DNA of 64,000 nucleotides, taken from NCBI GenBank assembly GCA_029260075.1, contig JAJDDY010000010.1, forward strand, positions 22,968 through 86,967. Reading direction: 5' to 3'. The position numbers and the translations under genes are program-made. This stretch comes from Phycisphaerae bacterium. Lineage in GTDB: Bacteria; Planctomycetota; Phycisphaerae; UBA1845. Shown here piece after piece: positions 41,583 to 61,826 of this stretch. Numbering within the stretch: the stretch's first letter is position 1; every line of letters begins with the position of its first letter. The notes beneath the pieces were generated by a model. It did not search any database. It saw nothing but the letters and a program-made list of their open reading frames with translations, and had not been told where the DNA came from.

Positions 41583-42056
41583 TTTTTCGAACCGGCTGCT
41601 AAGTTCGAAGGGCGTTCGATCGTCGGATTCTCGACTTCTCGACTTCTCAGCTTCGGTGCATTCCTCAATCCGTGTACCCATCCGTGTACCCATAAAACTC
41701 CGCCGCCGATCGAAGACAGACGGCAAATGGAATTAGCCAACCACACCGGTCTCGGCGACCGATATCCAGCACGTCTAGCGTAGAGAATCGTCACGCGACC
41801 GAAGCGTGACGGCTTGTAACCAATTGCACGACAGACACTTAGGTATGCCGCCTGTTGATTCGAATGGACGGCCGTCCTATAATCGCCAGGGTTTCCGGTG
41901 CGTACTCCGTGCGACCGGAGTTGGTGGGTGCGTGACTGAACAAGCGACGGTGTGTGGCCGTCGCGCGTGGGAATAGCGGCTGGCTGACGGTTGGAATCAG
42001 CGGGCACGATGCGGGCACAATTTGATGCCAGCCTCTTCATTTGGAGGAAAGGTACG

Positions 42057-44117: not shown

Positions 44118-44193
44118 GAGGAAGTCCGAGGTTCAACAGACCGTCGTACCAGAGCCCTCGATCATCGACCTTCGATCTTGAGTTAGGTTTTTC

Positions 44194-45288
44194 ATGATCC
44201 TGCAAATCAATAACGACCATCAGCGGTTCCGCAAGATCGTCAAGGGACGGATCCGCAAGGATCTGCGTAAGTTCCTGACGCGGAGCGAACTGATCGGGCG
44301 AGAAGGCAAGAAGTACATCAGCATCCCCGTTCGCGGGATCGACATGCCGCATTTTCGGTATGGCGACAACAACGACGCCGGCGTCGGGACGGGGGACGGC
44401 AAACCCGGAGACGCGGTGCAGGGAAGCGGAGCCGGTGCGGGCGGCACGGAAGAGGGTAAGCACATACTTGAGGTTGACATCAGCCTCGAAGAGTTGGCGG
44501 AAATCCTTGGCGAAGAACTCCAGTTACCCCGGATCAAGCCAAGGGGTAAGCACCGAATTTCCGCCGAGCGCGATCGGTATAGCGGTATCCGACAAGCCGG
44601 TCCGGAGTCACTCCGCCACTTCAAGCGCACATTCAAACGGGCCCTACGCCGGCAGATCATGTCGGGGTTCTACAACCCGGACAGGCCGACAATCATCTTC
44701 GAACGCCGCGACAAGGTGTACCGAAGTTGGAAGACGATCCTCAAACCACAATCCAACGCCGTCCTGATCTACATGATGGACATATCCGGATCGATGGGTG
44801 ACGAGCAGAAGGAACTCGTACGCCTCGAAGCGTTTTGGATTGACGCGTGGTTGCGCAGGAATTATCAAGGCATCGAGAGTCGGTACATCGTTCACGACGT
44901 GCGCGCCGGCGAGGTCGATCGGGAAACGTTTTTCCGTATTCGCGAGGACGGCGGGACACGTATCAGCAGCGCCTACAAGCTGGCGAGGGCGCTGATTGAG
45001 CACAACTATTCACCGGAAGAATGGAACATCTACCTGTTCCATTTTTCCGACGGCGACAACAGCAGCGAATCGGACAGTCGAGAATGCTGCTCGCTGTTGA
45101 CCGAGAACCTACTGCCCAACCTCAACCTGTTCGGATACTGCCAGGTCGCCAGCGCGTACGGCAGCGGCAACTTCATCAACGTATTGCACGAGCAACTCGG
45201 TGACCAAGAAACGATCATCACCAGCCGCGTGAACACGAAAGACGACATCTACGATAGCATCAAGACGTTCTTTTCGGCGGGGAAGTAG
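44194..45288 (+). CDS. YeaH/YhbH-family protein (DUF444, vWA-like)
   Basis: Motifs LIYMMDISGSMGDEQKELVR, GGTRISSAYKLARALIEHNYSPEEWNIYLFHFSDGDN and DDIYDSIKTFF. Confidence 0.9.
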   Translation: MILQINNDHQRFRKIVKGRIRKDLRKFLTRSELIGREGKKYISIPVRGIDMPHFRYGDNNDAGVGTGDGKPGDAVQGSGAGAGGTEEGKHILEVDISLEELAEILGEELQLPRIKPRGKHRISAERDRYSGIRQAGPESLRHFKRTFKRALRRQIMSGFYNPDRPTIIFERRDKVYRSWKTILKPQSNAVLIYMMDISGSMGDEQKELVRLEAFWIDAWLRRNYQGIESRYIVHDVRAGEVDRETFFRIREDGGTRISSAYKLARALIEHNYSPEEWNIYLFHFSDGDNSSESDSRECCSLLTENLLPNLNLFGYCQVASAYGSGNFINVLHEQLGDQETIITSRVNTKDDIYDSIKTFFSAGK

Positions 45289-45296
45289 AGGCCGTT

Positions 45297-46850
45297 ATGA
45301 ATATCAAATTGCCGAAGGAAATCGCCGAACAGGCGGAGATCATCGCGGAGTATGCGCGGCAGGAAGGTCTCGACTTCTACCCCACGATTTTTGAAATGCT
45401 CTCGTCGGAGCAGATGTCGCAAGTGGCTGCATATTGCGGGTTCCCCAAGCGGTATCCACACTGGCGGTTCGGGATGGAGTACGAACGCCTTCGCAAGCAG
45501 CATCGCTATGGTCTAGGCCGCATCTACGAGATGGTGATCAATAACGACCCGTGCTACGCCTATCTTCTGGCCGACAACATGTTCGTTGACCACAAGACGG
45601 TGATGGCCCATGTCTACGCCCACTGCGATTTCTTCAAGCACAACGTCTGGTTCTCGAAGACCAATCGCAGCATGATCGACGAGATGGCCAACCACGCGAC
45701 TCGGGTTCGCCGATACATCGAACGACACGGTATCGAACGCGTCGAGCAGTTCATCGAGACGTTGCTGTCGCTGGAGAACTTGATTGACGCACACTCTGTG
45801 TTCGTTCGGCGTAACCCTCAGCTCGAACCGAAGAGCCAACCGGCCGTGAACCACACGCGGGAGGCCGCACGATACCCCGCCAAGGGTTATATGGATCGCT
45901 ACATCAACCCGCCCGACGTGATGACGGCGGAGCGAACGCGCCTACGGGAAGAGGCGGCGCAAGACAGCGGTCGTTTCCCGGCTGAACCCGTTCGCGACGT
46001 GCTGCTTTTCCTGCTTGAGAACGCCCCCATAGAAGATTGGGAGGCTGACATCCTCTCCATGATCCGTGAAGAGATGTACTATTTCGCGCCGCAAGGGCAA
46101 ACGAAAATCATGAATGAGGGCTGGGCGAGCTATTGGCACTCGACGCTCATGACGCGGTACATCCTTAACGACGACGAACTCATCGACTATTGCGAGCACC
46201 ACTCCGGAACGCTGGCCACCTCGCCGGGGCGACTGAACCCCTACAAGCTGGGTATCGAATTACTCCGAGATATCGAACTGCGTTGGAACACCGGGCGATA
46301 CGGTCCGGAATTCGACGCCTGCGACGACATGGCCGTGCGTCGCGTCTGGGGCAAGGAAAAAATACCGAAGGAACGCGTAATTGGTCGCGGAAGCCCAGGG
46401 CGTGAAAAAATCTTTCAGGTACGTGCTGTCTACAATGACGTGACGTTTCTTGATGAGTTCCTAACGCCGGAATTCGTCGAGGCGCAGAACCTCTATCACT
46501 ATCGCTATGATCCGAACACGCAACGAATGGTCGTGGTCAATCGGGACTTCGACAAGATCAAGAGCCAGCTATTGTTTGCACTGGCCAACCACGGTCAGCC
46601 ATACATTTTCGTGACCGATGGAAATTTCCGAAACCGCGGTGAACTCTATCTAACGCACCGCCACGCCGGCGCGGACATCGACATCAAGTACGCCCTGGAA
46701 ACACTCAAGAACATCCACCACATTTGGAAACGCCCGGTACACCTGAACGCCAGAATCGACGACGAACCGATCCTGTTTTCGTACGACGGCGAGCAGTCCA
46801 CTCAACAACACATAGACGAGCGCGTCGACGCCCCCGCCCACGATTTCTGA
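45297..46850 (+). CDS. SpoVR/YcgB-family protein
   Basis: Motifs GLDFYPTIFEMLSSEQMSQVAAYCGFPKRYPHWRFGMEYE, YEMVINNDPCYAYLL, NEGWASYWH and GELYLTHRHAGADID. Confidence 0.9.
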   Translation: MNIKLPKEIAEQAEIIAEYARQEGLDFYPTIFEMLSSEQMSQVAAYCGFPKRYPHWRFGMEYERLRKQHRYGLGRIYEMVINNDPCYAYLLADNMFVDHKTVMAHVYAHCDFFKHNVWFSKTNRSMIDEMANHATRVRRYIERHGIERVEQFIETLLSLENLIDAHSVFVRRNPQLEPKSQPAVNHTREAARYPAKGYMDRYINPPDVMTAERTRLREEAAQDSGRFPAEPVRDVLLFLLENAPIEDWEADILSMIREEMYYFAPQGQTKIMNEGWASYWHSTLMTRYILNDDELIDYCEHHSGTLATSPGRLNPYKLGIELLRDIELRWNTGRYGPEFDACDDMAVRRVWGKEKIPKERVIGRGSPGREKIFQVRAVYNDVTFLDEFLTPEFVEAQNLYHYRYDPNTQRMVVVNRDFDKIKSQLLFALANHGQPYIFVTDGNFRNRGELYLTHRHAGADIDIKYALETLKNIHHIWKRPVHLNARIDDEPILFSYDGEQSTQQHIDERVDAPAHDF

Positions 46851-47031: not shown

Positions 47032-49563
47032 GTGAAACGTCGTGGAGATGGATCAAGCGTGTCCCACAGCGTCGAATGTCCAGATCGGTCGAAGCTCCAC
47101 GCCTACGCTGCGGACGGGCTGGCGCAAGACGCCGTGCCGGAGCTCGAAGCGCACCTGGCCGACTGCCCCGCCTGTATGACGCGCCTGAAGGAACTGGGTC
47201 GCGGAGCGATCAAGCCGGAAATCCCAGATTGCCAAGTGGTTCGGGAACTCGGACGGGGTCGATTCGGAGTGGTTTACAAGGCCTGGCGTCTGGGTCACAG
47301 GCCGCGCATCGTCGCATTGAAAGTGCTCACGCGACCGGGCGATATGGAGAAGAGCCGCTTCGATCGCGAAATCACGGTGCTCAAGAAGCTGGACTCGCCG
47401 GGTATCGTCAAGTGCATTGACTCGGGCGAAGCCGACGACGAAATGTACTTCGTCATGGACCTTGTTGATGGCAAGCACCTCGACGAATACTTTGTGTCCA
47501 CGGAACATGACCTGGCGCACAAACTCGAAGTCTTCGAGCGCATTTGCGTTGCCGTGGCTGACGCCCATGACTTGGGCGTGACGCATCGAGACCTCAAGCC
47601 ACGCAACATACTCGTCGACGCCGACGGCCAACCGCACATACTTGACTTCGGGATTTGCTCCGTCAACGCGATCGATTGGAGTAGCGACGTACGCGGTACG
47701 ATCACACATCCCGGTGACATCATCGGGACACTCCGGTACATGTCGCCGGAACAAGCATGGGGTGGTGCGGTCGGACGGATCGATGAACGCAGCGACATCT
47801 GGGCACTGGGCATCATTCTACACGAACTGGTAACCGACGGCGGATACCCCTACTCACTCAAGTCGACGCCGGACAAGCCCGTTCACGAAGCCGTCTTGGA
47901 TCGCATCCGCAAGGAACTGCCACAGTTGCCGAACCTCTCGTCCCTCCCCCGAGGACGCGACCTCGACGTGCTGTTGCAGCGATGCCTTACCTGGGAGACG
48001 GAGGACCGACTATCGTCCGCGCGTACGCTCGCAAACGACATCCGGCGCTACCTCGACGGACAGCCGATCACCACGAAATCGCTCTGGATACCGTACCAAC
48101 TGAAACGCTTGGCCGTCGGCGCTGCCACACGATCGCGCTGGCCATTTGCTGCCGTCTTTGTCGCTATGACCACAGCCACGCTCTGGTTGACTACGATGAT
48201 GTTCAGCGTGGGATGGCGGGTCGATCGCGTCGAGCATCAACCACTGGCGCAACTAGACGCCGGGCACGGTCACTCGACCAATCCGCGTGACGGGATCGTC
48301 ATTGTGGGCATTTCGGACGAGACCGTCAATGTGGTTCGAGAGCTGGCGCCGACGATCGGGCAGAGCGGCGTCACCAGCGCCATGCCAACCTGGCGCGGCG
48401 TTCACGCCCAACTCTTGCGTCGACTCGCACGGGTCCGCCCCGCAGGTGTTGCCTGGGATTTCTACTTCCGTTCTGAACAACCAGCGGACGCGGAATTGGC
48501 CGACGCCATCGAACACCTCGAACGTATCGGCGTTCCGGTCATCCTCGCCTCTGACACTTATGACCACGAAGCGCGACCGGAGCTGAGCCGGGGACTGTCT
48601 GATCGTCTCGGGTTCCGACTGCGACACGGCGCCATCGTCGCCCGCAACATGGTGCAGCGTCCGGGCGCGTTTGTGCTGGCGTATAAACCAAACGACAACC
48701 TGATCATACCAGCCCTTACGCTCACGACCGTAGCGGCTCTTCGTCACCCCGAGGGTTACCTGGACATCGAGTGGACAGGGAGGAACGCACATCTGGATGT
48801 GCTCTGCGAGATTCGGCCTGGAGCCTACTTGCGCGAACGCGATCGAATTGACTTAACCAAAGTTGTTGCTCAGAAACGTGACGATCTCTCCGTCCGCGCC
48901 GGCGACATGGTCGCGCTCAGTACAATGCGGCTTGAATCGCCGACGGAATGGTCGCGGCGGACCGTCGCCTATGAGCGCCTGTTGACGGCTGCGGACGAGG
49001 AACTTGAGACACAGATCGCGGGGAAACTCGTGATCGTGGGCGATCTACGCACGCCGCGTTTCGGGTTCCAGGGAGATCGCCACAGCGTCAAGTACGGCGC
49101 GACCGTCGAACCGTCCGTACCGGGATGCTATCTCGTGGGCGATGCCATCGCCGGTCTGCTCAACCGCAGCTACGTGCGTCTGGCGTCTCCGCTGGGTACG
49201 CCCAAGTACTTGTTGATGGTTGCGATGGCTGTGGTCGGGTTCCTCGTTCCGATTCGCCTTGCGACACTATCGCTTTGGGAACGGCGAGGCATGCGTCGCA
49301 CGCTACTTGTGGTGGTCGCGGTACTTTCTGGGATATGTTACGCCACCATCGTCTTGGCCGATGGGTTCGCTGCGATCCATGTGGGGATGGCGGGGTTCTG
49401 CTTGTTGACCGTGATGATCGGGTCGCTGCTCGTCGAGTTCACCCGCAACCGCCATCGCATTGCCGAGCGTAAGAGGCAATCGATGAACGGGCTAACGTTT
49501 GCGACCGAGGGAACCGTTACCCTACCGCTGAAGCGGAGGAAACGGCTCCAAGCAGCACGGTAA
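47032..49563 (+). CDS. Membrane sensor Ser/Thr protein kinase: N-terminal zf-HC2-like motif, Hanks kinase domain, CHASE2-like extracytoplasmic domain and C-terminal TM bundle
   Basis: zf-HC2-like LEAHLADCPAC. Kinase motifs GRGRFGVVYKA, VALKVL, HRDLKPRNILV, DFG and SPE. A TM segment, then VIVGISDETV...WRGVHAQLLRRLARVRPAGVAWDFYF (CHASE2-like), then three C-terminal TM segments. The start is uncertain (GTG at 47032 or 47059). Confidence 0.85.
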   Translation: MKRRGDGSSVSHSVECPDRSKLHAYAADGLAQDAVPELEAHLADCPACMTRLKELGRGAIKPEIPDCQVVRELGRGRFGVVYKAWRLGHRPRIVALKVLTRPGDMEKSRFDREITVLKKLDSPGIVKCIDSGEADDEMYFVMDLVDGKHLDEYFVSTEHDLAHKLEVFERICVAVADAHDLGVTHRDLKPRNILVDADGQPHILDFGICSVNAIDWSSDVRGTITHPGDIIGTLRYMSPEQAWGGAVGRIDERSDIWALGIILHELVTDGGYPYSLKSTPDKPVHEAVLDRIRKELPQLPNLSSLPRGRDLDVLLQRCLTWETEDRLSSARTLANDIRRYLDGQPITTKSLWIPYQLKRLAVGAATRSRWPFAAVFVAMTTATLWLTTMMFSVGWRVDRVEHQPLAQLDAGHGHSTNPRDGIVIVGISDETVNVVRELAPTIGQSGVTSAMPTWRGVHAQLLRRLARVRPAGVAWDFYFRSEQPADAELADAIEHLERIGVPVILASDTYDHEARPELSRGLSDRLGFRLRHGAIVARNMVQRPGAFVLAYKPNDNLIIPALTLTTVAALRHPEGYLDIEWTGRNAHLDVLCEIRPGAYLRERDRIDLTKVVAQKRDDLSVRAGDMVALSTMRLESPTEWSRRTVAYERLLTAADEELETQIAGKLVIVGDLRTPRFGFQGDRHSVKYGATVEPSVPGCYLVGDAIAGLLNRSYVRLASPLGTPKYLLMVAMAVVGFLVPIRLATLSLWERRGMRRTLLVVVAVLSGICYATIVLADGFAAIHVGMAGFCLLTVMIGSLLVEFTRNRHRIAERKRQSMNGLTFATEGTVTLPLKRRKRLQAAR

Positions 49564-50461: not shown

Positions 50462-51096
50462 TTCTTCGACGGGCTGTTAGGGACCCAGCCTTACCGTCGG
50501 AACAACACTGTGTCTTCGTCTCGGTAACGCTGCTGAACTCGGTCATGTGCCGTGCTCGATACCACGTTGTTCACACGATCATGTGTGCGCTCGCTCATCC
50601 CCGCAACACGACCACGCCCGAGAGGATGCGCACTGACATCTCAAACTGCCGTCCTTTCACTCCTCGTATAGATACGAAACGCGCGCACCCGATTGACACA
50701 TTCCGTAACGCCGGTTTGCCACAGACGTGTAACATCGAACCGTACCACTGCCGAACGGTCCGGGATCAGGAGATCAGACACGTTAACAAACCCACAGTTT
50801 GAGACGGTTACCGTGTCTTGAATCGCGCGGCCGTTACAACCGCCCGATGTCAACCGACTCGACGTTCGCCAACGACCAGCGCCACCCTACCCGATCCGTA
50901 TGTGTTCTTTTGTCGCCTCGGGAATACGTTGTGGTGCTTCCCTTGGAAAGCAGCTAGACTTTGCTAAGGTCGCGGTCACAGTTGTCATTCAGGGACAGAG
51001 TCATGAACGAGCGGTTTCGCGCTACAGACTAGGATGCGAGAACAGTGCAGTTGCGTCGTTCGATCCGAGACCGCAATGCACCGACGCAGTGACACG

Positions 51097-51546
51097 ATGC
51101 TGGGAAACTACGTTGCTTACAAGCGAGCCACATTTTCGACCCGCCTGCATCGGGACCGTTTGTACACGGCCGGTCATCTCTGGCTTCTTGAGCACGAGAG
51201 GAATGTTTGGCGCATCGGGTTCACAAGGTTCGCGACGCGCGTGCTCGGCGATGCGGTGGAGTTTGACTTCGAGCTCAGAGTGGACGCACCAACGAAGGTC
51301 GGCGAAGTGATTGGCTGGGTGGAAGGATTCAAGGCCGTGACGGATTTGTTCAGCCCGCTCGATGGTCGTTTCAAAGGCGGCAACCCGTTGCTTGACGAGG
51401 ACATCAGTTTGATCCAAACCAACCCGTACGGCGATGGTTGGCTTTATTCGCTTGAAGGGTCGAGAACTTCTGACTGTGTGGACGTCGACGGCTACTCGGC
51501 TGTGCTCGATGCCACGATCGACCGCATGCTGGGGAAAAGTGCATGA
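51097..51546 (+). CDS. GcvH-like (glycine-cleavage H / lipoyl-carrier-like) protein
   Basis: Motifs LYTAGHLWLLEHERNVWRIGFTRFATRVLGDAV, VIGWVEGFKAVTDLFSPLDG (Lys at the lipoyl-Lys position) and NPYGDGWLYSLEG. An alternative start lies at 51076. Confidence 0.75.
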   Translation: MLGNYVAYKRATFSTRLHRDRLYTAGHLWLLEHERNVWRIGFTRFATRVLGDAVEFDFELRVDAPTKVGEVIGWVEGFKAVTDLFSPLDGRFKGGNPLLDEDISLIQTNPYGDGWLYSLEGSRTSDCVDVDGYSAVLDATIDRMLGKSA

Positions 51547-52697
51547 CCGGCGCGTCCAAACAACAATCCCGATACATCATGATCGGCGGTTTTCTCGGCG
51601 CCGGCAAGACCACCGCCGTCGCCCAACTCGCTCGTCATCTCGTCGACGGCGGCAACCGGGTCGGTTTGATCTGCAACGACCAGAGCAACGGTCTTGTAGA
51701 CACGACGTTGCTGCGATCCTACGGGTTCGACGTCGCGGAGATTGCCGGCGGTTGTTTCTGCTGTCGGTTTGATTCTCTGGTCCAAGCCGCAGACAACCTC
51801 AGCGCCGCGAGCGCCCCCGACGTGTTCGTTGCAGAACCGGTGGGCAGTTGCACGGACTTGGTCGCTACGGTCAGTTACCCTCTACGACGCATCTACGGCG
51901 ATCGCTTCACCATCGCCCCGTTGAGTGTGCTTGTTGATCCGATACGCGCCGCGCGAATTCTGGGGCTGGCGAAGGGGCGTTCGTTCTCGTCCAAGGTCGC
52001 CTACGTCTACCGCAAGCAACTCGAAGAAGCCGACATCATCGTAGTCAACAAGTGCGACTCGATCGACCACGCGCTGCGAACATCACTTGTCGACGCCCTC
52101 TGCGCTGAATTCCCGAGGAGCAACGTGCTGTGCTGCTCGGCGCGCGATGGGACCGGCTTGGACGATTGGTTCTCTCGATTGGACTCCGCGTCTCCGGACG
52201 ACTTGCCGACCATGTCCATCGACTACGATCACTATGCCGAAGGTGAGGCGTTGCTCGGGTGGCTGAACTGCACTGTGGCCCTCGCGGGGCGCGAATTGAT
52301 TGACGCCAACGAGCTTCTTGTCGAGCTGACGGTGCGCATTCGAGACCGGCTTGCAACCGAGCGTTGCGAGATCGCCCATTTCAAGGCCACGCTCGACGCT
52401 CAGGATCGATCGGGCAACTTGTCGGTCATCAGCCTCGTACACGGCGATGGTGAGCCGGACCTTCGCGAATCGTTGGCTGATCGCATTCGGTCAGGACGCC
52501 TAATCGTCAACCTTCGAGCGGAAGGCGACCCCGAAACGCTTCGGCGCGTGACGGAAGTCGCGCTGAACGAATGTGCATCGAGGACGCCCGGCATGTCGCT
52601 CGCCATCGAACACATGGAGCACTTCCGCCCGTCGAAACCGACGCCGACGCATCGCGTATCCGTAGCCGCTCAAGGCGCCAAGGGATCACCCGCATGA
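51543..52697 (+). CDS. G3E-family P-loop GTPase (CobW/HypB/UreG-like metallochaperone type)
   Basis: ATGA overlap with the upstream gene. Motifs IMIGGFLGAGKTT, GGCFCC (GCxCC-type metal motif) and IIVVNKCD (NKxD). Confidence 0.8.
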   Translation: MTGASKQQSRYIMIGGFLGAGKTTAVAQLARHLVDGGNRVGLICNDQSNGLVDTTLLRSYGFDVAEIAGGCFCCRFDSLVQAADNLSAASAPDVFVAEPVGSCTDLVATVSYPLRRIYGDRFTIAPLSVLVDPIRAARILGLAKGRSFSSKVAYVYRKQLEEADIIVVNKCDSIDHALRTSLVDALCAEFPRSNVLCCSARDGTGLDDWFSRLDSASPDDLPTMSIDYDHYAEGEALLGWLNCTVALAGRELIDANELLVELTVRIRDRLATERCEIAHFKATLDAQDRSGNLSVISLVHGDGEPDLRESLADRIRSGRLIVNLRAEGDPETLRRVTEVALNECASRTPGMSLAIEHMEHFRPSKPTPTHRVSVAAQGAKGSPA

Positions 52698-53116
52698 TTT
52701 CGACCGACGGTCCCATCAAGAATCACGGAGATACTGCCGTCACACCGGACGCTCGTACGAGCGATACCGGACCACGCATTTTGTTCTGCAATTGCACGTA
52801 CGCGAAGGTCATTCCCAAAGAGGTCAAACGGTCTGTGCTTAAGCAGCTGAGCGATTCGGGCGTGGCGTTCGACGCGGTTGCTGATCTATGCGAAATGTCT
52901 GCACGAAAAGATCCGACGCTGGCGAACATCGCTGGTTCGGGTGATGTGAAGATCGCCGCGTGCTATCCTCGTGCGGTCAAGTGGTTGTTCCATGCCGCGG
53001 GCGTGACACTCCCGGAAGACGGTGTAGAGATACACAACATGCGAGTGCAGGGTGCTGACGAAATCGTCCCGCTACTGCTTAACGGTCGCGCTGTCGGGGG
53101 AGCCCCATCGTCATGA
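52694..53116 (+). CDS. Small hypothetical protein (140 aa) with conserved-looking Cys residues
   Basis: ATGA overlaps at both ends (52694 and 53113). Motifs ILFCNCTYAKVIP, DLCEMSARKD and KIAACYPRAVKWL. No family recognised. Confidence 0.6.
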   Translation: MISTDGPIKNHGDTAVTPDARTSDTGPRILFCNCTYAKVIPKEVKRSVLKQLSDSGVAFDAVADLCEMSARKDPTLANIAGSGDVKIAACYPRAVKWLFHAAGVTLPEDGVEIHNMRVQGADEIVPLLLNGRAVGGAPSS

Positions 53117-54193: not shown

Positions 54194-55390
54194 ATGATTA
54201 TTGCTACCGCCAATCGAATGAGACGCTCGGTCGACGCGAGGTTGTTGTGGAAGTTTGCGTACAACTTCGGCTATAAGGGCATGCGTTCGGTTCAGCGGTT
54301 CAAAAAGCGACTCAAGAAAGGGCAGACGTTTCCGCCCTTCCTCTACCTTTCAATCACCAACGCCTGCAACCTGCGTTGTCAAGGATGCTGGATCGACGTC
54401 ACCGCACCGAAGGACTACATCGACCTGGCCGACCTGAACCGCCTGATCAACAACGCAAAGAAACACGGCAACAGCTTTTTCGGCATTCTCGGCGGTGAAC
54501 CCTTCATGCACCCCGACCTGATTCCACTGCTTGAAGGGCATCCGGATTGTTACTTCCAGATTTTCACCAACGGCCACTTCATCACCGACAAGGTCGCGTC
54601 GGAGTTGCGGCGTATCGGAAACGCGACCGTGTTGATCAGCGTCGAGGGTACGGAGATGGTCAGCGACGAGCGTCGCGGCAAATCCGGCGTGCTCAACAAG
54701 ACGCTCGGCGGAATCGAAACGTGCATTCGCCATCGCCTGATCACCGGCGTAGCCACTAGCGTGTGTCAAACGAATATCGATGACCTCGTGAACGAGTCGT
54801 GGGTGGACGAACTGGTCCGCCGAGGCGTTCACTATGTCTGGTACCACACCTACCGCCCGGTCGGTCCGGAAGCCGCGCCGCACTTGGCCCTTCGCCCGGA
54901 GCAGGTATTGAGCGTGCGACGCTTCGCCATGGACATGCGCAACCGCAAGGCAATCGGCGTCGTTGACGCCTACTGGGATGACAAAGGTCAAGCGCTCTGT
55001 CCGGCTGCGACAGGCATTAGTCACCACATAGGTCCGTGGGGCGACATTGAACCCTGCCCCATCATTCAGTTCGCGACGGAAACCATCCGCGACAACGACG
55101 GCGACGCGTTCAAGACCATGACCGAGTCGAAGTTATTGAAGGATTTCCGAACGACCGCAGCGAAGGCGACGCGCGGGTGTATCGTTTTGGAACGCCCGGA
55201 CCTGCTCAAAGACTTACTCGAACGCAACGGGGCCAAAGATACCACGGCCAGAAAACAGGCGTACGTCGAGTTGACCGTGATGAAATCGTTGAACAGCCAA
55301 CACAACCCCGGCCACGAAATCCCGGAGGAAAAATGGCTGTACCGCTTTGCGAAGAAGCACTGGTTCTTTGGATTCGGAGCTTACTCGTAG
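54194..55390 (+). CDS. Radical SAM enzyme (MoaA/NifB/PqqE-type core with a Cys-containing C-terminal extension)
   Basis: SITNACNLRCQGCW (CxxxCxxC), GILGGEPFMHPD and IFTNGHFI. C-terminal Cys residues in ALCPAATGISHHIGPWGDIEPCP. GAGGAC lies upstream of the ATG. Confidence 0.85.
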   Translation: MIIATANRMRRSVDARLLWKFAYNFGYKGMRSVQRFKKRLKKGQTFPPFLYLSITNACNLRCQGCWIDVTAPKDYIDLADLNRLINNAKKHGNSFFGILGGEPFMHPDLIPLLEGHPDCYFQIFTNGHFITDKVASELRRIGNATVLISVEGTEMVSDERRGKSGVLNKTLGGIETCIRHRLITGVATSVCQTNIDDLVNESWVDELVRRGVHYVWYHTYRPVGPEAAPHLALRPEQVLSVRRFAMDMRNRKAIGVVDAYWDDKGQALCPAATGISHHIGPWGDIEPCPIIQFATETIRDNDGDAFKTMTESKLLKDFRTTAAKATRGCIVLERPDLLKDLLERNGAKDTTARKQAYVELTVMKSLNSQHNPGHEIPEEKWLYRFAKKHWFFGFGAYS

Positions 55391-55578: not shown

Positions 55579-57489
55579 ATGAACTCAAAAAACGGATCGG
55601 TTCAAGTCGCCCGCGTCAGCGCGACAGGTGCGAACCACATTAGCCCGACAGACAACGCGGGTTCGAACGGCAACGGTTCTTTGCCCGCGCGCCGGGAGAC
55701 GATGGGGACGGAGGGGCGCAGGAACGCAGATGGCTCACTGCCCGCGCCGGTTAAGACGATCTCCCTGATTACGCTCCCACCGCGCGTTCCCAAACAACCC
55801 GACCGCCCCACCCAATCCAACATCCCCAACGATCGGGCCGTCCGCGATAAACTTAAGAGCGTTGCGGCCGAGCTAATCGAGCGTGACGGCGTGATTCCAC
55901 CGCTGACCATGGACGAAGTTCGCGAGCTGATCGTCAAAGTCCGGCGCGAAACGAACGTCGACGACATCTTCGACGATTACATCGCCGTTCTTGTGAGCAA
56001 CGCGGCATGGCGCGAGACGCTGGCTACGATCCCCTACAATCGACGGTTGCTCCTGTTGCCCAAGTGCCTTCGCGTCGAAGAACTCTGCCCCGCTCCGTTT
56101 GACGAGTTCGGACTGTTGTGCAAGGAGTGCGGTCTGTGCTCGCTGCACGATCTGACGGTCGAAGCGGAACGGCTGGGCTATGCAATCCTTGTCGCCGAGG
56201 GTTCGGCTATTGTTCGCAAGATGATCGAGACCGGAAGTATCGAAGCCATCGTCGGCGTCAGTTGCCTCAACGTGCTTGAGAAATGTTTCCCTCATCTCGA
56301 AGCGACGGCTGTACCGGGTGTCGCCATCCCTCTACTTCAGGACGACTGCGTCAACACAGCCGTCGACCTCGATTGGGTGTGGGACGTTATTCACCTGACT
56401 TCCGACGACAAGACGTACCGCCTTGATCTCGACGAACTTAAACGCCGGGTTCAGGGCTGGTTCGAGGGAGGCTCGCTTTCCAAAATCATGGGTGTTTGCG
56501 ACGGTCAGACCGAAACTATCGCACGAGATTGGTTGGCCCGCGCCGGCAAACGTTGGCGTCCGTACCTCACAGCATGTGTCTTCATGGCCCTTCGCGGTGA
56601 GTCGCAACACGATGTGCTTTCCGCACCTGACGACCTGAAAAAACTCGCCGTCGCGGTCGAATGTTTTCATAAGGCCTCGCTGATTCACGACGACATCGAA
56701 GACGGGGACGACGATCGCTATGGCGAGAAAACCGTTCACGCCGAACACGGCATGCCCGTGGCGCTTAACGTCGGCGACTTTCTATTGGGCGAAGGCTATC
56801 GATTGATCGGTGAGCTGGACTGCGACCCGAGTATCAAAGTGGCCATGTTGCAACAGGCTGCGCACGGCCACCTTACCCTCGCTCGTGGGCAAGGTGCGGA
56901 GCTCTGCTGGGCACGCGCCCCCAAGCCGATGTCTTCCCTCCAAGTGCTCGACATTTTCCGCCAGAAGACGGCGCCGGCGTTTGAAGTCGCGCTGCGCCTC
57001 GGCGCCTATTTCGGCGGCGCCGACGCCGAAACGCACGATGTGCTCACCGAGTATAGCGAAGCCCTTGGGATCGCATATCAAATTCGTGACGACCTTGAAG
57101 ACTTTACCAGTGAATCCGATTCGAACGACCTGCGCGACCTGCGGCCTTCACTGCTGCTCGCGATCGCCCACAAGCGAGCCGAGCAAGGCGCTGAAGCCGA
57201 GCTGATCGAATCGCTCTGGCGCCGCGAGCGCGAATACGATGACGTCGTGATGGAAGTCCAGCGCATTTTGTCCGATCGCGGCGTGTCACAGAAGGCGGTC
57301 GATCTTCTCGAAGCCTACACGGAGCAGGCGACACGTACCCTGCGTTTCGTGAACAACGCCACACTCAAGGGTTTGTTACGGCGCGTCGTCGGAAAAATTT
57401 TCGGCGACAACCTCATCGAAGGATATTGCAGTGAGTTTGAGGCTCGAAATGCTGCAGGTCGCGAGGCTGGCGCCGAACCTGTTGCATGA
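55579..57489 (+). CDS. Fusion protein: DUF116-like Cys-rich domain plus trans-polyprenyl diphosphate synthase domain
   Basis: DUF116-like region RRLLLLPKCLRVEELCPAPFDEFGLLCKECGLCSLHDL...AIVGVSCLNVLEKCF. Synthase region KRWRPYL, first Asp-rich motif LIHDDIEDGDDDRYG, second Asp-rich motif AYQIRDDLEDF. Confidence 0.8.
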   Translation: MNSKNGSVQVARVSATGANHISPTDNAGSNGNGSLPARRETMGTEGRRNADGSLPAPVKTISLITLPPRVPKQPDRPTQSNIPNDRAVRDKLKSVAAELIERDGVIPPLTMDEVRELIVKVRRETNVDDIFDDYIAVLVSNAAWRETLATIPYNRRLLLLPKCLRVEELCPAPFDEFGLLCKECGLCSLHDLTVEAERLGYAILVAEGSAIVRKMIETGSIEAIVGVSCLNVLEKCFPHLEATAVPGVAIPLLQDDCVNTAVDLDWVWDVIHLTSDDKTYRLDLDELKRRVQGWFEGGSLSKIMGVCDGQTETIARDWLARAGKRWRPYLTACVFMALRGESQHDVLSAPDDLKKLAVAVECFHKASLIHDDIEDGDDDRYGEKTVHAEHGMPVALNVGDFLLGEGYRLIGELDCDPSIKVAMLQQAAHGHLTLARGQGAELCWARAPKPMSSLQVLDIFRQKTAPAFEVALRLGAYFGGADAETHDVLTEYSEALGIAYQIRDDLEDFTSESDSNDLRDLRPSLLLAIAHKRAEQGAEAELIESLWRREREYDDVVMEVQRILSDRGVSQKAVDLLEAYTEQATRTLRFVNNATLKGLLRRVVGKIFGDNLIEGYCSEFEARNAAGREAGAEPVA

Positions 57490-58312
57490 ATCCGCCGATC
57501 GGGTCGCCGACTTCCTCCGCGACCAACTCAACCCGGACGGCGGGGGTAAGGATCGGGCCGGTACGAGCGATTTGTACTACACGGTGTTCGTGCTCGAAGC
57601 GCTGACGGCGCTGCGCGTCGAACTGCCAATCGAGTCCGTTCGCGCCTACCTCACAAACTTCGGCGGTGGCGATGAGCTTGATCTGATCCACCTGTCCTGT
57701 CTTGTGCGATGCTGGGCCAACCTTCCGGATGATGGCGTTAGTTCAAAGAACGCTATGAAGATACTCGACCGACTAAGTGCATACCGTAGCGAGGACGGTG
57801 GCTATGCAGCCGAGCCCGGCGAGCAATCCGGCACGGTGTACCACTGTTTCCTCGCGCTGGGTATGTATCAAGACTTGGATACGGCGATGCCCGATCCGGA
57901 CGGACTCATCCGTTGCATCGACACACTAAAGACAGGCGACGGCGCCTACGCCAACGATAAGGAGCTTGCCCTCGGGACGACACCGACAACCGCCGCGGCG
58001 GCGACACTCCTGCGTCACTCGAACAAGCCGGTTCCGAAAGAACTGGGCGAGTGGATGTTGGCGTGCTGTCATTCTGAAGGCGGTTTCCTCGCGTTCCCCA
58101 ACGCCCCCCTGCCGGACTTGCTCTCGACGGCTACGGCGCTGCACGCATTGTCTGGAATGCACGTAGACCTTGACGGCGTTAAGGAGCAATGTCTCGATTT
58201 TCTCGATACGCTGTGGACCGGCAAGTCGTTTTGTGGTCACTGGGCGGACGACTTCGAGGACAGTGAGTACACCTACTATGCCCTGCTCGCACTTGGGCAC
58301 CTGAGCTTATGA
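57431..58312 (+). CDS. Prenyltransferase / squalene-oxidase-repeat (alpha/alpha toroid) protein, single-domain size
   Basis: Repeats of the xDGG(F/Y) type: NPDGGGKDRAGTSDLYYTVFVLEAL, SEDGGYAAEPGEQSGTVYHCFLALGM, TGDGAYAN..TTPTTAAAATLL and HSEGGFLAFPNAPLPDLLSTATALHAL. The start is uncertain (GTG 57431, ATG 57449 or TTG 57482). It overlaps the upstream gene's end at 57489. Confidence 0.75.
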   Translation: MSLRLEMLQVARLAPNLLHESADRVADFLRDQLNPDGGGKDRAGTSDLYYTVFVLEALTALRVELPIESVRAYLTNFGGGDELDLIHLSCLVRCWANLPDDGVSSKNAMKILDRLSAYRSEDGGYAAEPGEQSGTVYHCFLALGMYQDLDTAMPDPDGLIRCIDTLKTGDGAYANDKELALGTTPTTAAAATLLRHSNKPVPKELGEWMLACCHSEGGFLAFPNAPLPDLLSTATALHALSGMHVDLDGVKEQCLDFLDTLWTGKSFCGHWADDFEDSEYTYYALLALGHLSL

Positions 58313-58315
58313 ACA

Positions 58316-60334
58316 ATGTCCTTTGATCGCACCGCCATAGAGCAAACGCTTGACGCCGCGCGAACGAAGCTGTTGTCGGCCCGCGTTCCAGCCGGTCATT
58401 GGGAGGGCCAACTCTCCAGTAGCGCGCTGTCGACAGCTACGGCTATTACGGCGATGGAGCTTTTCCGGCAGGCTGGCGGTGACCGACGAACGGCTTCGAG
58501 CCCGCCGCTTACGCAATTGATCAGCGCCGCGTTCGACTGGCTTGTGGATCACCAAAACGACGACGGCGGTTGGGGTGACACGGTCGACAGCCCGAGCAAT
58601 ATCAGCACGACCACGCTGTGCTGGGCCGCACTTGGGCTGATCGAACAAAGCAGCGACCGATACGCCGACACGGAACGTCGCGCGACACAGTACCTTGAAC
58701 AACTGATGGGTGAGTTGACGCCCTCGCACATCTCGCGATCAATCACGAGCGCGTACGGTAAAGATCGAACCTTCGCCGCGCCCATCTTGACGATGTGCGC
58801 GCTGACCGGTCGACTCGGGCGCGGTCGCGACGCCTGGCGATCCATCCCCGCGCTGCCCTTCGAATTGGGCGCGCTCCCGCATACCTGGTTTCGCCGGCTC
58901 GGTTTGTCAGTGGTGAGTTATGCGCTGCCGGCGCTGATCGCCATCGGACAGGTCCGTCATGTTCACCGGCCCACACGCAACCCGATTACGCGGTTGTTTC
59001 GCAACCTTGCCCGAAAGAAAACCCTGGCGATACTTCGCAACATCCAACCAAGTTCCGGCGGCTATCTCGAAGCCGCACCCCTCACAAGCTTCGTCGTCAT
59101 GAGCCTCACCGCGATGGGTCTCGCTCGACATCCGGTCGTGGAATCGGGCATCGGATTTCTCGTCGACACCGTCCGATCAGATGGAAGCTGGCCGATCGAC
59201 ACGAACCTAGCCACCTGGTGTACGACCCTCGCAGTCGGCGCCATCACGTCCGGGTCTACGTCAAGTGAACACCTCGATACGGACAGCGCGAACGCCATCC
59301 GCGAGTGGCTTCTCGACCAGCAATACAAGGTCGAACATCCCTACACACACGCAGCTCCGGGTGGCTGGGCATGGACCGATCTTCCTGGCGGCGTTCCCGA
59401 TGCCGATGACACGCCCGGGGCACTTCTCGCACTTTGGAACTTGCGCGGCTCCGATGCGTCTGATGATTCGACCGACGATCGAACGCTAAGGTCTGCGACG
59501 TTGGGGGTTCGCTGGCTGCTGGACGTGCAGAATCTAGACGGCGGCATCCCCACGTTCTGCCGCGGCTGGGGCAAGCTTCCATTCGATCAGAGCAGCCCTG
59601 ATCTGACAGCCCACAGCATTCGCGCGTGGGCTACTTGGCGCCGCGTCCTCCCGCGCGATATCCAATCCCGCATCGATGTGGCCACTGAAAAGGCCGTTCG
59701 CTTTCTCCTGAAAACGCAACAGATCGACGGGTCATGGCGGCCGCTATGGTTTGGCAATCAAGCCAAACCCAACACGCACAATCCCCTCTATGGCACGACG
59801 CGCGTTCTTCGCGCCGCGCGGGTCACACCCATCAAGAACGAGACTATGACGGCGTGGTCCGCTGCCAGAGTCGAGGCACTGTCTTGGGTGCTCTCGGCTC
59901 AACGCTCGGACGGTGGTTGGGGTGGTGCGGCCGATCTTCCGGCTTCGATCGAGGAAACCGCCCTGGCGGTTGAGGCGCTTGCGGATGTTCTTCACCACGA
60001 TCGCATCGGCGTCCTGCCGCCCGGACCACAAGCGGAGACAATGGGGCATGAAAAACCGGCGGGCGGGATCGAAGTGGATCAACATACAAGAGCCGCCACC
60101 GTCGCATCCGTGCAGCGTGGTTGCGACTGGCTCGTGAAGCACACCCATGGCGGTACGCAATTCAAACCTGCGCCCATCGGACTATACTTCGCCAAGTTAT
60201 GGTACTCGGAACGTCTCTACCCGATCATCTTCACCGTGTCAGCGCTGCAACGGGTTTGCGATTTGCCAGTCGACATGCTTGACGCTTCACCCGGAAGCGC
60301 ATCGACGGTAAGCGGGCGCGGCTGTACGGTGTAG
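58316..60334 (+). CDS. Class II terpene cyclase of the squalene-hopene cyclase family (SHC-like)
   Basis: 672 aa. DxDD-type motif GGVPDADDTPGALLAL. Multiple QW-like repeats (WLVDHQNDDGGWG, FLVDTVRSDGSWP, WLLDVQNLDGGIP, FLLKTQQIDGSWRPLWFGN, WVLSAQRSDGGWGG). C-terminal LYFAKLWYSERLYPIIFTVSAL. Confidence 0.85.
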   Translation: MSFDRTAIEQTLDAARTKLLSARVPAGHWEGQLSSSALSTATAITAMELFRQAGGDRRTASSPPLTQLISAAFDWLVDHQNDDGGWGDTVDSPSNISTTTLCWAALGLIEQSSDRYADTERRATQYLEQLMGELTPSHISRSITSAYGKDRTFAAPILTMCALTGRLGRGRDAWRSIPALPFELGALPHTWFRRLGLSVVSYALPALIAIGQVRHVHRPTRNPITRLFRNLARKKTLAILRNIQPSSGGYLEAAPLTSFVVMSLTAMGLARHPVVESGIGFLVDTVRSDGSWPIDTNLATWCTTLAVGAITSGSTSSEHLDTDSANAIREWLLDQQYKVEHPYTHAAPGGWAWTDLPGGVPDADDTPGALLALWNLRGSDASDDSTDDRTLRSATLGVRWLLDVQNLDGGIPTFCRGWGKLPFDQSSPDLTAHSIRAWATWRRVLPRDIQSRIDVATEKAVRFLLKTQQIDGSWRPLWFGNQAKPNTHNPLYGTTRVLRAARVTPIKNETMTAWSAARVEALSWVLSAQRSDGGWGGAADLPASIEETALAVEALADVLHHDRIGVLPPGPQAETMGHEKPAGGIEVDQHTRAATVASVQRGCDWLVKHTHGGTQFKPAPIGLYFAKLWYSERLYPIIFTVSALQRVCDLPVDMLDASPGSASTVSGRGCTV

Positions 60335-60337
60335 CCC

Positions 60338-61546
60338 ATGAAACGAGCGGTCTACTTCGATTACAACGCCACCACGCCGATGGACCCTCGCGTCTACGCG
60401 GCCATGGAGCCCTACTTTCTCGAACACTTCGGCAACGCGGCAAGTCGCCACCACAACCATGGTCGCGACGCCGCCAAGGCGGTGGAACGCGCCCGCGAGC
60501 AAGTGGCCAAGCTCATCGGTGCTGACCCACGAGAAATCGTTTGGACCAGCGGCGCGACCGAAGCCGACAACCTCGCACTAAGAGGCGTAGCTACGTCTCC
60601 CATTCACAGCGCGAAGGGTCGACACATCGTCACCGTTCGCACAGAACACAAAGCCGTCCTAGACACATGCGATCATCTTGAGCGACAGGGATTTGACATC
60701 ACCTACATCTCGGTCGACCGGCGGGGCTGCCTCGATCTCGATGAACTCGCCGACGCGATCACCGAGCGAACTGTCCTCGTGACGATCATGCACGCCAACA
60801 ACGAAACCGGCGTGCTCCACCCAATCCGCTCGATCGGAACACTCTGCAGAGAACGAGGCGTGCTCTTCCACACCGACGCCACGCAGTCCTTTGGCAAGGA
60901 ACCGATCGACGTGCAAGCTGACGCCATCGACTTGCTCAGCCTCTCCGCACATAAGACGTATGGTCCCAAGGGCGTCGGTGCGCTGTACGTGCGAAGACGG
61001 CGACCGCGCGTGCGCTGTGAACCGATCATCCACGGCGGCGGACACGAGCGCGGCGTGCGATCCGGCACGCTCAACGTCCCCGGCATCGTCGCACTCGGCG
61101 AAGTTGCCACGATTTGCGCTACGGACATGAGCATGGAACAAGATCGCATACGTAGACTGCGCGACGACTTGCAAGACCGACTTGCAATCGCCATTCCGGA
61201 CATGGTCGTCAACGGACACCCGAAGCAACGACTGACCAACACGCTCAATATGAGTCTTGCGGGTGTCGATAGTGACGCACTGATGCGGAGCATGCCCGAT
61301 GTGGCAGTGTCCGCAAGTTCTGCGTGTACCAGCGCCACACTGCAACCCAGCTACGTTCTTGGGGCCATGGGCGCTACCGATTCCGAAATCCGAGGCAGCG
61401 TAAGGTTTTCCATCGGGAGATTCACGACAGAGGAAGACATCGCGTATGTAGCCGGGCGTGTTATCGAAAGCGTAGCCGCACAAGTGGCCAATCGCGATGA
61501 ACCAACAGTGTCACCGGAAACCAGACGCGGCGAAGCTTGTGGCTGA
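60338..61546 (+). CDS. Cysteine desulfurase (IscS/NifS-type, PLP-dependent)
   Basis: YFDYNATTPMDPRV, SLSAHKTYGPKGVGALYV (PLP Lys), GGGHERGVRSGTLNVPGIV and SASSACTS (active-site Cys). Confidence 0.92.
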   Translation: MKRAVYFDYNATTPMDPRVYAAMEPYFLEHFGNAASRHHNHGRDAAKAVERAREQVAKLIGADPREIVWTSGATEADNLALRGVATSPIHSAKGRHIVTVRTEHKAVLDTCDHLERQGFDITYISVDRRGCLDLDELADAITERTVLVTIMHANNETGVLHPIRSIGTLCRERGVLFHTDATQSFGKEPIDVQADAIDLLSLSAHKTYGPKGVGALYVRRRRPRVRCEPIIHGGGHERGVRSGTLNVPGIVALGEVATICATDMSMEQDRIRRLRDDLQDRLAIAIPDMVVNGHPKQRLTNTLNMSLAGVDSDALMRSMPDVAVSASSACTSATLQPSYVLGAMGATDSEIRGSVRFSIGRFTTEEDIAYVAGRVIESVAAQVANRDEPTVSPETRRGEACG

Positions 61547-61753: not shown

Positions 61754-61826
61754 GGGGCCGTAGCTCACTTGGGAGAGCGCCTGGTTTGCAACCAGGAGGT
61801 AGGCGGTTCGATCCCGCTCGGCTCCA
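61754..61826 (+). tRNA. tRNA-Ala (anticodon UGC)
   Basis: Hand-folded cloverleaf: acceptor GGGGCCG/CGGCTCC with a G3:U70 pair, D arm GCTC-ACTTGGGA-GAGC, anticodon arm CCTGG-TTTGCAA-CCAGG, T arm GGCGG-TTCGATC-CCGCT, discriminator A. CCA is not encoded. Confidence 0.93.

Follow-up and report, generated by a model that had tools for sequence, protein, structure and literature searches.

Why should an enzyme that builds prenyl chains carry a cysteine-rich DUF116 domain in the same polypeptide? The question is raised by a gene in a stretch of 64,000 nucleotides from a Phycisphaerae bacterium (contig JAJDDY010000010.1, positions 22,968 to 86,967), which is called the window here and to which all coordinates refer. 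The gene joins DUF116 to a trans-polyprenyl diphosphate synthase. DUF116 is an old orphan family of archaea and bacteria, without a solved structure or a known function, and its fusion within a tightly conserved operon offers the best handle on it. The fusion is genuine and widely conserved, and the main new result is that the genes around it form a conserved operon with translational coupling, of which it is the centre. With a probability of roughly one half, DUF116 is an iron-sulfur (Fe-S) redox module tethered to the prenyl-chain synthase in a dedicated terpenoid pathway that the operon encodes.

Both domains are encoded by one intact gene

The encoded protein matches the Pfam family PF01976 (DUF116) at residues 123–270 with 120 bits against a gathering cut-off of 25 (E = 7e-35), and the match spans positions 8–154 of the 155 positions of the model. 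Residues 314–560 match PF00348 (polyprenyl_synt) with 146 bits against a cut-off of 27 (E = 1.4e-42). The original prediction for this gene, made from the DNA letters alone, had recognized a DUF116-like N-terminal region and a complete trans-prenyltransferase at the C terminus, and the hidden Markov model matches bear out both. The two Asp-rich motifs of the synthase, DDIED (371–375) and DDLED (504–508), are intact, and both are kept across the two alignments used here, A1 of close homologues and A2 of 33 fusions with identities down to 32%. The cysteine-rich strings that had been quoted are also all present (LLLLPKC163L, C170P, C181KEC184GLC187 and VGVSC229LNVLEKC236F), but the spacing from C170 to LLC is eight residues rather than nine.

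The first 110 or so residues had been described as disordered, which holds for residues 1–63 but not for those that follow. Residues 66–84 form the conserved motif LPPRVPxQxxRPxQSNIP, and residues 86–150 are modeled as three helices with a predicted local distance difference test score (pLDDT) above 95, as part of a conserved N-terminal half. Within the N-terminal extension, Leu-66, Pro-67, Arg-76, Gln-79, Pro-83, and Arg-89 are invariant in A1, and AlphaFold2 places its helices at 86–103 and 111–125, also with pLDDT above 95.

The fusion is conserved among distant bacteria

In precomputed Pfam annotations, both domains occur in all 120 of the best homologue clusters (64–75% identity, 568–637 residues); all 10 distant representatives at 35–48% identity have both domains too. 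When only the DUF116 half was used as query, an exhaustive HMMER search matched 831 representative clusters, 221 of them at E ≤ 1e-30; 92 of the best 150 matches are at least 470 residues long and have DUF116 at the N terminus. With each species represented by one genome, a scan revealed relatives in at least 584 species. Among the matches listed, these belong to at least seven phyla (Planctomycetota, Verrucomicrobiota, Acidobacteriota, Myxococcota, Gemmatimonadota, Chloroflexota, and Armatimonadota), the acidobacterial carriers being Vicinamibacterales, Holophagae, and Thermoanaerobaculia, and the closest relatives are encoded by planctomycete metagenome-assembled genomes at 74% identity. An identical protein is present in two SRA assemblies. 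Over DUF116, the mean column identity among the close homologues of A1 is 67%.

Two adjacent genes joined by a frameshift during sequencing or assembly would give the same appearance, and a frameshift or stop separating two genes had been named beforehand as a refutation of the fusion. No point in favor of such an artefact was found. The fusion is a single open reading frame in hundreds of genomes, including the closed chromosomes CP070744, CP197413, and OW818658; both domains occur in all clusters checked; and a conserved helical linker connects them. Where short DUF116-only matches were inspected, they proved to be the fusion itself, truncated or frameshifted, which indicates that errors break this gene up and do not create it. 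Among the short representatives checked there was no naturally split form, and a tblastn search of plasmids with the DUF116 domain gave no match. The artefact can therefore be dismissed for practical purposes: the fusion is a genuine two-domain protein, conserved far beyond chance.

The architecture itself is already catalogued and is not new. Makarova et al. (2015; PMC5898192) recorded DUF116 fused to a polyprenyl synthetase in Psta_0175 of Pirellula staleyi, and no mention of the family accessions was found in papers besides this one. NCBI names the proteins "polyprenyl synthetase family protein," and JGI names many of them "geranylgeranyl pyrophosphate synthase (type II)." The supposition that the architecture is absent among characterized enzymes nevertheless stands for the PDB and the searchable literature, where no characterized enzyme with it was found.

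The DUF116 domain carries seven invariant cysteines

Seven cysteines are invariant in A2, at positions 163, 170, 181, 184, 187, 229, and 257, together with Pro-161, Asp-175, Asp-263, Trp-144, and Arg-156. The set includes a CxxCxxC motif (C181xxC184xxC187) and a Cys-Pro pair. The fused form thus has the six or more conserved cysteines, a ferredoxin-like CxxCxxC among them, that have been described for DUF116 (PMC5898192), but it lacks the two N-terminal transmembrane helices typical of arCOG02078. No transmembrane segment was found in the fused protein, its highest 19-residue Kyte-Doolittle mean being 1.38. Makarova et al. predicted metal binding for DUF116 from at least six cysteines including CxxCxxC, and also a flavodoxin-like fold and a role in electron transfer (PMC5898192).

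The AlphaFold2 model computed with a diverse alignment has a mean pLDDT of 83 and a predicted template modeling score (pTM) of 0.81, compared with 73 and 0.65 for a shallow alignment. DUF116 is modeled as a soluble parallel α/β domain in which strands 156–160, 202–205, 223–228, and 247–251 alternate with helices. Cys-163, Cys-229, and Cys-257 directly follow strands 1, 3, and 4, and the other four invariant cysteines lie in the loop 161–187. The models contain no cofactors, and a cluster is read from the positions of strands and loop: cysteines placed behind strands and in a loop above the sheet would have a geometry typical of cluster sites. Most likely, the seven invariant cysteines bind one or two Fe-S clusters. 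The metal binding supposed in the original prediction is to this extent plausible from the cysteine pattern. To judge by the helical linker and the high pTM, the two domains may well be held in a fixed orientation.

No solved relative of DUF116 was found in the PDB, either by phmmer with the full protein or with a profile of 25 sequences; the only hit, FruR, was insignificant (E = 0.9). Foldseek, run on whole-chain models undivided by domain, returned only prenyl synthases for the first model against the PDB and only viral trans-prenyltransferases for the second model against BFVD, with no match to the DUF116 part in either case.

The synthase domain is predicted to make a long chain

The synthase domain has the all-α isoprenoid synthase fold in the AlphaFold2 model (pLDDT above 90). 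Foldseek gives a TM-score of 0.86 to 4jyx, 6kd7, and 5ze6, with hexaprenyl, octaprenyl, and geranylgeranyl diphosphate synthases among the solved structures matched at about this value, and 0.80–0.88 over the solved trans-isoprenyl diphosphate synthases; the PDB sequence matches of this half range from geranylgeranyl diphosphate (GGPP) to decaprenyl diphosphate synthases. By motifs and fold, it is predicted to be a catalytically competent trans-isoprenyl diphosphate synthase.

In such enzymes, a bulky residue at position −5 before the first Asp-rich motif caps the chain length. The C20 GGPP synthases 5jfq, 1wy0, and 1wmw have Phe, Tyr, and Trp there. In the fusion, positions −5 and −4 are Ala-366 and Ser-367, and the stretch ASLIHDD is identical to that of the C45 solanesyl diphosphate synthases 9k9b and 9k9c. 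In A2, Ala-366 and Ser-367 are at least 90% conserved, and Asp-371, Asp-372, and Asp-375 are conserved. Because alanine at −5 provides no bulky cap, the product is likely longer than C20, of the medium- or long-chain type, and the name GGPP synthase is probably wrong about product length. The domain scores below every product-specific NCBIfam cut-off, including those of the GGPP synthase models NF041003 (96.5 against 500), NF040698 (110.7 against 468), and NF045685 (63 against 460).

The fusion gene lies in a conserved operon

The neighbors of the fusion gene in the window were compared by tblastn and blastp with 83 related loci, and gene counts refer to the 38 loci with sufficient flanking sequence on both sides. 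The genes are colinear in the order GcvH-like protein, CobW-like GTPase, a small cysteine protein (u181), ferredoxin-domain protein (Fer4), radical S-adenosylmethionine (SAM) enzyme, fusion, a single α-α toroid (Tor293), DxDD cyclase, and often IscS. All eight partners are present in 17 loci, and the most faithful are u181 and the ferredoxin-domain protein (32 loci each). The planctomycete strain SH248 (CP197413, locus L048) is one carrier of the complete cluster. Most junctions of the operon in the window are either 4-nucleotide overlaps or 3-nucleotide gaps, and the 4-nucleotide start/stop overlaps indicate translational coupling. The features are collected in Table 1.

Table 1. Features of the fusion gene and the surrounding operon, with window positions and the basis of each assignment (counts are out of 38 loci)
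Feature	Position	Strand	Basis
DUF116 and trans-polyprenyl diphosphate synthase fusion gene, 636 aa	55579–57489	+	Single uninterrupted open reading frame with ATG start; Pfam
Variable S/G/N/A-rich N terminus, aa 1–63, predicted disordered	55579–55767	+	Length and sequence variation in A1; pLDDT below 50; composition
Conserved N-terminal extension, aa 64–122: LPPRVPxQxxRPxQSNIP, then helices	55768–55944	+	Alignment A1; AlphaFold2
DUF116 domain (PF01976), aa 123–270, parallel α/β core with seven invariant Cys	55945–56388	+	Pfam; A2; AlphaFold2
Cys-rich loop C163-x6-C170-P-x9-C181-xx-C184-xx-C187, putative [4Fe-4S] ligands	56065–56139	+	Sequence; five Cys invariant in A2
Helical linker between the domains, aa 271–313	56389–56517	+	Helices 284–293 and 297–304 at pLDDT 85–95
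Trans-isoprenyl diphosphate synthase domain, aa 314–610	56518–57408	+	Pfam; PDB sequence matches; Foldseek
Chain-length region and first Asp-rich motif, K-A366-S367-L-I-H-D371DIED375	56671–56703	+	Conservation in A2; PDB comparison
Second Asp-rich motif, D504DLED508	57088–57102	+	D504, D505, and D508 conserved (A1, A2)
Overlap of the fusion gene's 3' end with the 5' end of the Tor293 gene, out of frame	57431–57489	+	Open reading frames; also in L001 and L002
GcvH-like protein, lipoyl-type Lys K100 in EGFKA	51034–51546	+	Pfam GCV_H; 27 loci
CobW/COG0523-like GTPase, GGCFCC motif conserved	51543–52697	+	Pfam cobW; 26 loci
Small Cys protein u181, core of about 110 aa, CxC...C...C	52694–53116	+	Start from gene call; 32 loci
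Ferredoxin-domain protein, 2x[4Fe-4S], C124–C134 and C155–C166	53113–54009	+	Pfam Fer4 families; 32 loci
Radical SAM enzyme, CNLRCQGC at aa 58–65, C-terminal auxiliary Cys	54194–55390	+	Pfam Radical_SAM; 29 loci
Tor293, single α-α toroid, prenyltransferase β-subunit-like	57431–58312	+	Pfam Prenyltrans, 41 bits against 26.5; 29 loci
Class II terpene-cyclase-like protein (squalene-hopene cyclase-like)	58316–60334	+	Pfam SQHop_cyclase_N and SQHop_cyclase_C; 24 loci
IscS/NifS-type cysteine desulfurase	60338–61546	+	Pfam Aminotran_5; 22 loci
tRNA gene directly downstream of the cysteine desulfurase gene	61754–61826		Rfam, 62.6 bits

Upstream of the fusion, both cysteine motifs of the ferredoxin-domain protein are conserved in 46 sequences. 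Its neighbor u181 has no Pfam match even at E ≤ 10 and no NCBIfam family, and its conserved core reads ILYCNCTYA...DLCEMSARKDP...KIAACYPRAVKWLF. Locus L001, from a Phycisphaerales genome, encodes both u181 and the ferredoxin domain in one open reading frame, which ties the two together; u181 is probably a new family of redox proteins. A relationship between u181 and DUF116 was rejected (hhalign probability 0.3%). The radical SAM enzyme has the conserved CxxxCxxC of its class (C58NLRC62QGC65), and its best NCBIfam and PDB relatives are the SPASM/twitch-type enzymes NirJ, BlsE, and SkfB, all far below the cut-offs.

Downstream, Tor293 has no sequence relative in the PDB. The cyclase combines the SQHop_cyclase_N and SQHop_cyclase_C double toroid with the DxDD motif of class II cyclases (D362ADD365, nucleotides 59399–59410), GGVPDaDDT being conserved in 32 sequences, and has a distant PDB match in the squalene-hopene cyclase (SHC) 1gsz. 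The cysteine desulfurase scores 517 bits with NCBIfam IscS, just under the cut-off.

The fusion gene and the Tor293 gene overlap by 41–59 nucleotides, or by 41 if the start of the gene caller at 57449 is taken, and the same out-of-frame overlap is found in L001 (11754–11812) and L002 (4506–4564). The overlap recurs as a dual-coding stretch in loci of Planctomycetota and Acidobacteriota, where the synthase tail IEGYCSEFEARNAA and the Tor293 N terminus SLRLEMLQVARLAP are both conserved. In Verrucomicrobiota, the fusion gene and the toroid gene are separate, with no overlap. Two verrucomicrobial loci have a two-gene insert between them (L013, 12017–12409; L014, 11575–12360) that looks like a toxin-antitoxin cassette, one open reading frame being Doc/Fic-toxin-like as judged by eye.

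The lysine K100 of the GcvH-like protein is invariant in 39 sequences, and the protein scores below the NCBIfam gcvH cut-offs. The CobW-like GTPase has an unfamiliar conserved C-terminal half; a lead to TrsS and CobW-related selenoproteins was dropped after a literature search gave no link. An ordinary GcvT gene lies at 40246–41472.

The tRNA gene marks the downstream end of the operon and was the only hit of an Rfam search of the operon for regulatory RNAs and riboswitches. Scans of the operon for promoters and terminators gave background levels. A reading as a defense system was rejected, PADLOC returning nothing beyond a weak generic radical SAM/viperin match. No squalene synthase gene is present in the operon or elsewhere in the window, and the large open reading frames of the window include no isoprenoid genes beyond those of the operon. 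Elsewhere in the window, a PrkA kinase, DUF444, and SpoVR triad lies upstream at 41991–46850, a conserved stress module of the yeaG-yeaH-ycgB type, and after it comes a CHASE2-domain Ser/Thr kinase (47032–49563). A giant open reading frame of 2952 residues occupies 1410–10268 of the forward strand.

DUF116 as a proposed redox module in a terpenoid pathway

The identity of the neighbors bears on the role of DUF116. The conserved genes around the fusion encode Fe-S carriers and terpene-cyclase-like proteins as well as a radical SAM enzyme and a cysteine desulfurase, a combination that speaks for redox steps in a pathway and not for regulation. In the reading we favor, electrons from the 2x[4Fe-4S] ferredoxin-domain protein and u181 would enter DUF116 and drive a reductive or radical reaction of the polyprenyl chain that the adjoining synthase domain makes. 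DUF116 might feed the adjacent radical SAM enzyme, or might itself reduce the allylic diphosphate. Finally, the DxDD class II cyclase and Tor293 would cyclize the chain, and the product of the operon is probably a cyclic lipid. The domain identities, the intact motifs, the fold class, the invariant cysteines, and the conservation of both fusion and operon are results of the analysis; that a cluster is bound, which way the electrons flow, and what the substrate and product are is what we infer from them.

The original prediction had instead spoken of a sensing domain, and a sensor of redox state, oxygen, iron, or metal that switches the fused synthase on and off is worth weighing. The synthase reaction is not a redox reaction, so regulation would explain the covalent link, and Cys-rich Fe-S domains do act as sensors elsewhere. 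IspG and IspH, which stand upstream in isoprenoid supply, are oxygen-sensitive Fe-S enzymes. However, no regulators stand among the conserved neighbors, which comprise electron carriers together with a radical SAM enzyme and a desulfurase, and a mean column identity of 67% is typical of enzymes or electron-transfer partners. Standalone DUF116 proteins also sit with redox enzymes (PMC5898192). A sensing role finds no support here, and we regard it as unlikely.

Slightly less credit still is due to DUF116 as a structural zinc or Fe-S scaffold with no redox role, which would only assemble the complex of synthase, radical SAM enzyme, and cyclases, or place it at the membrane. The predicted packing between the domains would be rigid at a pTM of 0.81, and the conserved N-terminal peptide motif could serve as a docking element. 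Standalone DUF116 proteins are anchored in the membrane by two transmembrane helices (PMC5898192), of which the fused form has none. Seven invariant cysteines with CxxCxxC and Cys-Pro, next to a dedicated ferredoxin-domain neighbor, fit electron transfer better. A pure sensor or a pure scaffold is thus less consistent with the neighbors than a redox module.

A closer competitor, although one that we also hold to be rather improbable, makes DUF116 itself a catalytic Fe-S reductase that acts on the prenyl diphosphate in the manner of IspH, beyond a mere relay of electrons. Conceivably, the allylic diphosphate would be lost reductively, leaving a polyprene hydrocarbon for an SHC-like cyclase to fold; cyclases of the SHC type normally take hydrocarbon substrates. 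In the 5 of 38 loci that lack a nearby radical SAM or ferredoxin gene, the fusion persists with all seven cysteines, which suggests that DUF116 serves the synthase directly. The invariant Arg-156, Asp-175, Asp-263, and Trp-144 adjoin the cysteine sites, which is more like a substrate site than a simple ferredoxin. IspH has a site-differentiated cluster held by three cysteines, and the three cysteines at the ends of three strands in the model would resemble it. On the other hand, no such reaction is known, and phmmer and profile searches of the PDB revealed no sequence relation to IspH or any solved enzyme. The varied non-isoprenoid contexts of standalone DUF116 favor generic electron transfer (PMC5898192). 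Relay and catalysis are both compatible with the results; what still speaks for catalysis is that the fusion persists without partners and that Arg, Asp, and Trp residues near the cysteines are invariant.

Several points weigh against the redox module itself. Elongation of a prenyl chain needs no electrons. No DUF116 protein is known to bind a metal or a cluster, and the cysteines could bind zinc. The prediction of a long chain rests on two residues, and the best NCBIfam scores of the synthase come from short-chain-type models (IdsA, GGPP_syn, and encapsulin cargo), all below their cut-offs. In 5 of 38 loci, the fusion stands without any partner within 6–10 kb, so the link to the pathway is not obligatory in cis. 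Full-text literature searches found no paper on the operon, which hence has no experimental anchor.

If the operon makes a cyclic polyprenoid, it would stand for a new class of bacterial lipids and a possible source of orphan geochemical biomarkers. Hundreds of species carry the operon, and they belong to phyla of soil, freshwater, and marine habitats about whose lipids little is known. A bolder version, which we offer as a long shot, is a widespread, so far unrecognized pathway of Planctomycetes-Verrucomicrobia-Chlamydiae (PVC) bacteria, Acidobacteriota, and other phyla in which a long regular polyprenyl diphosphate is processed reductively by DUF116, as a new kind of Fe-S domain, or by the radical SAM enzyme that it feeds, and is folded by the divergent DxDD cyclase into cyclic regular polyprenoids, the precursors of tricyclic terpanes. 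For these orphan biomarkers of sediments and oils, precursors of the tricyclohexaprenol type have been postulated but never located (PMC9247107). Such a pathway would give DUF116 its first function.

Relation to known systems

The window protein is a member of the family of Psta_0175, the "polyprenyl synthetase family protein," and is 64–75% identical to many members from Planctomycetota, Phycisphaerae, and Acidobacteriota. There is no difference in architecture, and a description of the operon context was not found in the searchable literature. With standalone DUF116 (COG1852, arCOG02078; for example MMP0162 of Methanococcus maripaludis), it shares the hidden Markov model match, the CxxCxxC cysteine pattern, and the predicted flavodoxin-like α/β fold. 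Where the standalone archaeal proteins are anchored in the membrane by two transmembrane helices (PMC5898192), the fused form is predicted to begin with a disordered tail, followed by a soluble extension of amphipathic helices. The genomic contexts differ as well, the standalone genes being neighbors of sulfite reductase-like genes and, in methanogens, of an ArsA-like ATPase (PMC5898192). A terpenoid region of a Bipolaricaulota isolate contains a standalone DUF116 with IspH, SHC, HpnH, and a polyprenyl synthetase (bioRxiv 10.1101/2025.11.21.689855), and is a second, independent co-location of the same families in unfused form.

The synthase domain shares its fold (TM-score 0.86), the Asp-rich motifs, and the Ala-Ser pair at −5/−4 with the medium- and long-chain solanesyl (9k9b, 9k9c), octaprenyl (3wjk, 5ze6), and hexaprenyl (4jyx) synthases. 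Compared with these, the fusion has about 310 additional N-terminal residues and stays below the cut-offs of all product-specific NCBIfam models. The best overall sequence similarity is to the archaeal-type short-chain GGPP synthases (5jfq, 1wy0, 1wmw; IdsA, GGPP_syn), but in these an aromatic Phe, Tyr, or Trp at −5 stops elongation at C20, whereas the fusion has alanine. The likeness to IspH and IspG is one of function only, namely [4Fe-4S] chemistry on prenyl diphosphate precursors, with no detectable sequence relation.

As in the hopanoid and sporulene pathways, the gene of a prenyl-chain enzyme stands in the operon next to those of a DxDD class II cyclase and a radical SAM enzyme. The C35 sporulenes of Bacillus likewise start from a polyprenyl diphosphate synthase. 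However, the cyclase reaches only 84 bits with the SHC model TIGR01507, which has a cut-off of 431, and 106 against 323 for TIGR01787, the radical SAM enzyme scores 40 bits against 225 for the HpnH model TIGR03470, and neither the operon nor the window contains an HpnC/D/E squalene synthase gene. Because these scores lie so far below the cut-offs and the squalene synthase gene is absent, the operon is not a standard hopanoid cluster. What it adds to the shared set is a module of Fe-S, GcvH-like, CobW-like, and IscS proteins.

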